IMG/VR virus record: IMGVR_UViG_3300045971_000528
Coordinates: 32,001 to 96,000 of that record
Strand: one strand, 5' to 3'
DNA length: 64,000 nucleotides
From: a virus
Part shown: positions 43,746-43,968 of the stretch, in pieces
How positions within the stretch are numbered: the first letter of the stretch is position 1
Layout of the letters: every line of letters starts with the position of its first letter
The notes under the pieces: generated by a model
What the model was told of the DNA's origin: nothing
Database searches by the model: none
Seen by the model: the letters and a program-made list of their open reading frames with translations, nothing else
Made by a program: the position numbers and the translations under genes

Positions 43746-43786
43746 CAACCAAGGGCAGAAGCCTTTCGGTTTCTGCCCTTGGGTTG
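43746..43786 (-). terminator. terminator hairpin of the putative attenuator
   Basis: CAACCCAAGGGCAGAAACC-GAAA-GGCTTCTGCCCTTGGTTG then CTTT. Confidence 0.75.
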
Positions 43787-43803
43787 GTAGGTGTTGTCCT
43801 ACT

Positions 43804-43905
43804 TTATCCTTGGGCAGCCTCCGCTGGATAGGCTGGCGCGCATACTGCACTACCTGACCCGGTGGTCAGAAGAAGCGAGGATGAAGGCAAGCCTAGAGAA
43901 TTCAC
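43804..43905 (-). CDS. putative leader peptide MNSLGLPSSSLLLTTGSGSAVCAPAYPAEAAQG
   Basis: TAAGGA RBS, GTG start, TAGAAT -10 upstream, followed by terminator. Confidence 0.6.
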   Translation of the reverse strand: MNSLGLPSSSLLLTTGSGSAVCAPAYPAEAAQG

Positions 43906-43968
43906 GGAAGATACTTCCTTAGTCGATGTTGTAATTCTATATATGCGGCGGGCGGGAAATGCACAAAT

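Follow-up and report, generated by a model that had tools for sequence, protein, structure and literature searches.

A candidate ribosome-dependent attenuator upstream of a tRNA array in a virus genome, with similarly built leaders at other phage tRNA arrays

The role of phage-encoded tRNAs has been debated for decades, with proposals that include codon compensation and the replacement of tRNAs cut by host defenses (PMC10264068, PMC11464382). Here, we ask whether a short open reading frame (ORF) and the strong hairpin behind it, which stand 460 nt upstream of a 28-tRNA array in a virus genome, control the transcription of that array. An earlier note on this DNA had read the locus as an attenuator that senses the tRNA pool. 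In our analysis, the segment 43905-43740 on the minus strand (ORF, spacer hairpin, and terminator) would act as a ribosome-dependent transcription attenuator before the array, a reading to which we assign a probability of about 0.62 from sequence and folding models. Every sequence-level prediction of such an attenuator that was tested held, so the earlier interpretation is supported in silico, namely by the codon match of the ORF, an antiterminator pairing, a second leader in the same genome, relatives of the leaders, and the arrays of Ralstonia phage RsoM2USA and Tunturiibacter phage Tunturi_5.

The window, i.e., the whole stretch of 64,000 nucleotides analyzed, corresponds to positions 32001-96000 of a virus contig that is 106,081 bp long and has every gene on the minus strand. 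The feature under study, hereafter leader 2, follows the same orientation throughout, as was confirmed in the sequence for its Shine-Dalgarno (SD) element, ORF, hairpins, and terminator (Table 1). Upstream of it, a run of overlapping paralogous small genes (43969-47225, minus strand; 118-236 aa) without a match in PHROG stops 64 nt short of the leader ORF (ORF 2), and orthologues of this run in other metagenomes (P0003, P0004) are 81-83% identical. The ribosome-binding site and the 33-codon ORF that had been described are both present, with an SD-to-start spacing inside the range seen for the phage's own genes. Initiation is suboptimal, combining a GTG start with a longish SD spacing, and the SD can form a 5-bp hairpin with a CTTCC just before the start, so that its sequestration is possible, which counts against the attenuator reading. 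A long imperfect hairpin extends across the ORF body, and its apical stem-loop (CUGACC/GGUCAG) is possibly a pause or synchronizing hairpin in the folding model; an ORF-body hairpin of similar kind also occurs in the second leader of this genome (leader 1). The terminator holds up as a hairpin, with arms at 43782-43771 (5′) and 43760-43749 (3′), a loop at 43770-43761, and a predicted energy of -24.7 kcal/mol, whereas its U-tract (TTGCTTTCC) is weak and a simple terminator scan made no call. The terminators of leaders 1 and 2 have the same build.

Table 1. Coordinates of leader 2, its surroundings, and the compared leaders (window positions unless stated otherwise)
Feature	Position	Strand	Basis or remark
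131-aa gene	43969-44364	minus	Stop at 43969, directly upstream of leader 2 region
Possible weak promoter: TGTGCA 43965-43960, TATATA/TAGAAT 43943-43934	43965-43934	minus	By eye; uncalled in promoter scan
AT-rich stretch with TAGAAT	43939-43934 (TAGAAT)	minus	Between 131-aa gene stop and SD
SD-like AAGGAAG	43920-43914	minus	8-10 nt before GTG
Leader ORF 2: GTG, 32 sense codons, TAA	43905-43804	minus	Read from sequence
Apical stem-loop CUGACC/GGUCAG of long imperfect hairpin across ORF body	43854-43869	minus	Folding
Antiterminator 5′ strand CTGCCC-AA-GG, in codons 30-33	43817-43808	minus	Pairing prediction
Spacer hairpin GUAGG-loop-CCUAC, nested within antiterminator	43802-43787	minus	Folding
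Putative intrinsic terminator (stem of 12 bp; GAAA tetraloop closed by inner 2 bp; tail TTGCTTTCC)	43782-43740	minus	Folding
Promoter TGTACA-N16-TATGAT	43712-43685	minus	Downstream of leader 2 terminator; promoter scan
Promoter TGTACA-N17-TATAAT	43593-43565	minus	Downstream of leader 2 terminator; promoter scan
tRNA array 2: 28 ARAGORN tRNAs	33829-43284	minus	ARAGORN; first gene tRNA-Val at 43284
tRNA array 1	genome 23732-17476		Outside window; tRNA gene calls
Leader 1	L002 8330-7880 = genome 24330-23880	minus	Outside window, before tRNA array 1
L007 (IMGVR_UViG_3300045970_001344)	3600-3920		Leader 1 relative; pattern scan of IMG/VR
RsoM2USA/Tunturi_5 leader ORFs and terminators	L016 17771-17930; L018 940-1121; L015 6903-7130, 19305-19540; L020 957-1115	L018: reverse	Matched to own array

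The array downstream of leader 2 (array 2) holds tRNAs for Val, Tyr (two), Lys, Ser (four), Ala, Leu (seven), Pro (four), Gly (two), Met (two), Thr (two), Ile, Cys, and Asn. Its amino-acid set is nearly complementary to that of array 1, which lies outside the window and carries tRNAs for Trp, Asn, Gln, Lys, Glu, Phe, Thr, Arg, Val, Asp, His, Met, Ile, and Gly-ccc. The Met and Ile(tat) tRNAs of array 2 go beyond the list given earlier, and the statement that the array has no Lys tRNA was wrong, with tRNA-Lys(ttt) located at 42707-42782. Several other tRNA-related elements were noted. An element at 41304-41408 (minus strand) is tRNA-like in Rfam only, with ARAGORN giving a tRNA-Val(aac) that has a 32-nt anticodon-loop insertion. 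A degenerate tRNA-Arg(UCU)-like sequence stands beside tRNA-Arg(ccg) at genome position 17558-17629, outside the window, and its counterpart in the related contig L007 (9128-9198) scores as real, while for the single tRNA-Arg(cct) at 20060-20134 no leader was found. A tRNA with a CUA anticodon (amber suppressor; 53127-53201) adjoins a permuted beta-type tmRNA (53513-53866), both on the minus strand. RsoM2USA also encodes a CUA suppressor tRNA, together with a peptidyl-tRNA hydrolase (PMC8504454), and the suppressor tRNA common to both hints at kinship of this phage with RsoM2USA.

The codons of ORF 2 correspond closely to the content of array 2. A recount bore out that 30 of the 32 residues after the start belong to the amino-acid set of the earlier list and that all four Gly, all four Ala, five Ser, and four Leu codons are used; 0.15% of genome windows reach the 30/32 level. 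Under strict wobble rules, array 2 can decode 26 of the 32 codons compared with 6 for array 1, and the ORF samples 18 of the 23 distinct array-2 anticodons, the five without a codon in ORF 2, Lys-ttt among them, counting against the attenuator reading. Relative to stop-free windows of the genome, the own-array count is modest by itself (P = 0.014) and the own-minus-other difference reaches P = 0.0015, with corresponding values of 0.0016 and 0.0003 when the letters of ORF 2 were shuffled. Read in either of the remaining two frames, these letters score only 12 and 16 versus 26. ORF 2 is a clear outlier among the eight ORFs of the 684-nt leader region, and it takes first place when 564 minus-strand ORFs (20-70 codons) are ordered by array-2-minus-array-1 match. 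The match shows specificity for the frame as well as for the array.

The end of ORF 2 can also pair with the 5′ arm of the terminator, as had been proposed, and in a transcript truncated before the 3′ arm this CTGCCC-AA-GG pairing is the predicted minimum free energy (MFE) structure. The resulting antiterminator comprises 6+2 bp and encloses the spacer hairpin (-19.2 kcal/mol versus -24.7 for the terminator). It is lost only when the ribosomal A site is at codons 27/28-34 (for leaders 1 and 2 together, in the last 7-10 codons), so that smooth translation would favor termination and an earlier stall would favor read-through. Compared with dinucleotide shuffles, the duplex is modest alone (P = 0.035), and its 6-mer is not exceptional, as an upstream 6-mer complement occurs at 11 of 91 other hairpins, which counts against the reading. 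Equilibrium folding with a ribosome mask forms the full terminator in every ribosome position; because the terminator always wins at equilibrium, the switch would have to be kinetic. No anti-antiterminator (segment 1:2) is predicted for leader 2, and the ribosome-free truncated transcript folds into the antiterminator, so an untranslated leader would read through by default, unlike trp. The CAGCCT/AGGCTG hairpin that had been suggested as a competitor of the antiterminator can form, but it appears in no predicted MFE structure and is weakened in one of the relatives described below (X3).

We infer that ORF 2 is translated and that the switch would operate in the following way. Leader 2 would be transcribed by RNA polymerase that has started at a weak local promoter or has come through the upstream operon, and the last four ORF codons would pair with the 5′ arm of the terminator and thereby block it. 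A smoothly translating ribosome would reach the end of the ORF and cover the antiterminator strand, after which the terminator would form and transcription would stop; a ribosome stalled earlier, at any of the ~18 codon types read by array 2, would leave the antiterminator free and permit read-through into the tRNA genes. The trigger would be a shortage of tRNAs, e.g., after cleavage of host tRNAs, and since more array-2 tRNAs would relieve the stall, the leader would place the tRNA pool under negative feedback.

The -10 element (TAGAAT) claimed for the region upstream of ORF 2 fared less well, as it has no acceptable -35 and failed the promoter scan. By eye, a weak promoter with a TGTGCA is possible, at a spacing of 20 nt to the TAGAAT, and leader 2 has no convincing promoter of its own, which counts against an attenuator; transcription of leader 2 may arrive instead from the upstream operon. 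Both promoters that had been placed downstream of the terminator were found. Across the whole genome, their motif, TGTACA-N16/17-TAnnAT, has 11 copies on the minus strand compared with 0 on the plus strand, and reads as a genuine promoter class. With two promoters between terminator and array, passage through the attenuator is not the sole route of array-2 transcription, so leader 2 would gate only transcription coming from upstream and cannot control all of it. A second strand-specific promoter-like class (TATAAATA/GTAAATA) was counted 19 times on the minus strand versus once on the plus strand of the whole genome, and promoter-like motifs in the window lie, e.g., at 8466, 15850, 16618, 43593, 43712, 50124, 52342, and 59217 (minus strand). 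Two further hairpins without a short ORF before them occupy 43541-43501 (minus strand), between the second downstream promoter and tRNA-Val, and the one at 43518-43501 is terminator-like with a TGCTCTTTAA tail.

The position of the two promoters also fits a simpler explanation, in which the hairpin is a plain terminator of the upstream paralog operon (44.0-47.2 kb), ORF 2 is a chance frame in a structured 3′ UTR, and the downstream promoters alone drive the array. A codon match specific to frame and array, by which ORF 2 ranks first among the ORFs compared, argues against a chance frame, as does the preservation of the frame in relatives, although 33-codon open frames are common, the 6-mer of the antiterminator is unexceptional, and no terminator lies between the 131-aa gene and ORF 2. 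The same design recurs upstream of array 1 and of arrays of RsoM2USA and Tunturi_5, where the match is far stronger, and we consider a plain terminator unlikely.

Candidate leader 1, upstream of array 1, is an independent second case in the same genome and a better example than leader 2; no homology between the two leaders, and no leader repeats elsewhere, were found. It consists, in order, of a TGTACA-N16-TATAAT promoter, the TATAAATA motif, a 40-codon ATG ORF (ORF 1; L002 8085-7963), and a strong terminator, with both promoter types upstream of the ORF and all transcription passing through the putative attenuator. Array 1 can read 36 of the 39 codons of ORF 1 compared with 17 for array 2 (window P = 2e-4; shuffle P < 5e-5), and the ORF samples 20 of the 21 array-1 anticodons. 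The correspondence extends to the choice among synonymous codons: ORF 1 has GGG (Gly-ccc) as its sole Gly codon and encodes Val by GTC and GTG (Val-gac, Val-cac), in contrast to GTA (Val-tac) in ORF 2. When the 54 tRNA genes were dealt at random between the arrays, the observed total of 62/71 was reached in 5e-5 of trials. The predicted antiterminator of leader 1 involves codons 32-35 and 11 bp (-25.4 versus -26.9 kcal/mol for the terminator), its 11-nt match is unique among 93 hairpins, and it is rarely equaled in dinucleotide shuffles (P = 0.002).

The same architecture was found in other phages. Each of the two large arrays of RsoM2USA (MG752970.1) has a leader ORF, a terminator, and a pairing between ORF end and terminator arm; for leader A, the score is 20/24 with the array it precedes and 2/24 with the second one, and for leader B the values are 30/36 and 3/36. 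In Tunturi_5 (PP885688.1), a leader is present at all three arrays (window P = 1.4e-4, 0.0056, and 0.024), with leader B scoring 33/48 on its own array versus 9 and 4 on the others. Across the seven leaders, the spacer from stop to terminator is 21-31 nt long and the ORF end is complementary to the 5′ arm of the terminator, with antiterminator P values that combine to about 1e-5 by Fisher's method. The leaders of RsoM2USA and Tunturi_5 thus resemble leader 2 in their array-matched ORF, in a spacer of this length that often contains a small hairpin, and in the ORF-end pairing, and the terminator loop of RsoM2USA is of the GAAA type as in leader 2; they differ from it in having strong terminator U-tracts and no sequence homology to it. 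In the two regions with annotation listed, nothing is annotated over these leaders except gp308 of Tunturi_5, and the RsoM2USA paper mentions no leaders, promoters, or terminators. The TATAAATA motif was also seen before one RsoM2USA leader. No significant leader was found in Pseudomonas phage Bitten or at the small arrays of RsoM2USA that contain 6 and 3 tRNAs. Our confidence that the class of such leaders as a whole is real is higher than that for the leader 2 copy.

Scans of IMG/VR and JGI by hairpin, degenerate pattern, or the flanking 131-aa protein yielded no relative of leader 2, and BLAST against the phage collection gave no match to leader 2 and only generic tRNA matches for tRNA-bearing stretches. 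Among rejected candidates, L004 was a chance match in an unrelated gene, and L005 and L006 were chance matches in collagen-like repeats. The relatives compared are two pond-metagenome contigs, X3 and X4, aligned to the region. Among the differences listed, X4 has 5 changes in 195 nt (43746-43940) compared with ~16% divergence in the adjacent gene, of which two fall in ORF 2, both synonymous third-position changes (codons 7 and 15); the top pair of its terminator changes from A-U to G.U, and the promoter-like region 43934-43965 shows only TAGAAT>TACAAT while the upstream gene diverges by that ~16%. X3 is about 83% identical and carries a one-codon deletion plus a +2/-1/-1 cluster that together preserve the frame. 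In the comparison of its ORF, which covers codons 1-7 and those from 18 on, five codons change the amino acid (5 of about 20 known residues), the codons seen still belong mostly to the array 2 amino-acid set, and the last six codons are untouched. The spacer hairpin of X3 is rebuilt as a different GGUC/GACC hairpin at the same place, and the antiterminator strand 43808-43817 is invariant in both relatives.

Conservation far above that of the flanking gene, a compensatory change in the spacer hairpin, and a strong fold (43730-43945; MFE -74.8 kcal/mol, z = -4.15 versus shuffles) would also be expected of an untranslated conserved structured RNA, e.g., a 3′-end-derived sRNA of the upstream operon with a function unrelated to the tRNA pool. 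Such an RNA leaves the frame-specific array-2 codon bias, the synonymous-only changes of X4, and the frame-preserving indels unexplained, and no Rfam family reached the gathering score at leader 2, where only sub-threshold chance matches to SNORA26 and mir-147 appeared; we regard this explanation as improbable. The likeness of the region to Y RNA is limited to a short GGTTAC. Leader 2 is not a T-box, for which no match was found at the gathering score or at E <= 10 in 43250-44050. It is equally improbable that ORF 2 is translated without a transcription switch, as a small Ser/Leu/Ala/Gly-rich protein or with an effect only on mRNA stability or tRNA precursor processing, since the peptide changes freely in X3, one codon being deleted, while its last six codons and the RNA pairings stay fixed, and since leader 2 and six other leaders share the complementarity between ORF end and terminator arm, even though an SD and start codon are present and the frame is kept in relatives.

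For leader 1, the relative L007 retains the promoters, the ORF, and the terminator. Its leader core is ~97% identical to leader 1, compared with 47% for the neighboring 180-aa protein and clearly diverged tRNAs. The ORF has two 3-nt in-frame indels and gains a GGAG SD, the terminator apex has two compensatory pair changes, and 36 of the 43 codons fit the 23-tRNA array of L007. The N-terminal 10-11 codons are hypervariable, in frame, and still paired within the ORF-body hairpin; that these variable codons are not enriched for an array match counts against the attenuator reading. An AGA codon is found only in the L007 leader and a good tRNA-Arg(tct) only in L007, the reference copy being degenerate. 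This co-change is suggestive of covariation between leader codons and tRNAs, offset by mismatches in which GGG is kept without a Gly-ccc tRNA and Ser/Ala codons seem to lack a matching tRNA.

The attenuator proposed here has counterparts among known systems. Leader-peptide attenuators include the multivalent ones of the enterobacterial thr, ilvGMEDA, and ilvBN operons and also those of trp, his, leu, and pheA. Attenuators of this kind have been modeled (PMC1183508). In amino-acid operon attenuators, as in leader 2, the codons of a short leader report charged tRNA, an intrinsic terminator follows, and the position of the ribosome decides the alternative pairing. The genes under control would here be tRNAs instead of biosynthetic enzymes, the new leaders sample ~18-20 anticodons, mostly once or twice, in contrast to runs of 1-3 amino acids, and leader 2 differs further in that no 1:2 anti-antiterminator is predicted, the untranslated state would read through, and promoters lie downstream of the terminator. 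Leader 2 would work like a multivalent leader-peptide attenuator, except that two traits of the classical type are missing, namely an anti-antiterminator and exclusive control over what lies downstream. The pheM leader of the pheST operon places Phe-tRNA synthetase under attenuation control. It shares with leader 2 the leader-peptide attenuation of a component of the translation apparatus, but responds to a single amino acid (Phe), targets a synthetase protein gene, and is bacterial, not viral. T-box riboswitches likewise read tRNA status and switch a terminator and antiterminator in the leader, but bind one uncharged tRNA directly and without translation.

Literature searches turned up no description of tRNA genes under leader-peptide attenuation. 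The nearest published case is the trn array of Anabaena, a 26-gene tRNA operon that stays silent as long as translation is unimpaired (PMC8421152) and is repressed by TrcR (PMC10272220). As proposed here for leader 2 and array 2, it comprises accessory tRNA genes that are expressed more strongly under translational stress, but its mechanism is a DNA-binding repressor and it is cellular and not of phage origin; the 2021 study (PMC8421152) mentions no attenuation, leader, or terminator.

If the attenuator reading is true, the supply of phage tRNAs would be driven by demand, and leader-peptide attenuation would reach beyond amino-acid biosynthesis to the tRNA pool. The leader would be a directly testable cis element and would offer synthetic biology a compact natural device that senses ~20 tRNA species, and for annotation, leader ORFs would be predictable from array content. 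Beyond this locus, giant phages probably have a widespread class of such elements, in which each tRNA block is preceded by a leader ORF with codons for almost all anticodons of that block and by a terminator/antiterminator switch, so that the usable tRNA pool would be measured codon by codon and a block transcribed only when one of its members is short. Such leaders would serve, e.g., after anticodon-nuclease cleavage of host tRNAs or during host shut-off, and the splitting of large arrays by amino acid would be explained as an arrangement that allows each array to be sensed separately.
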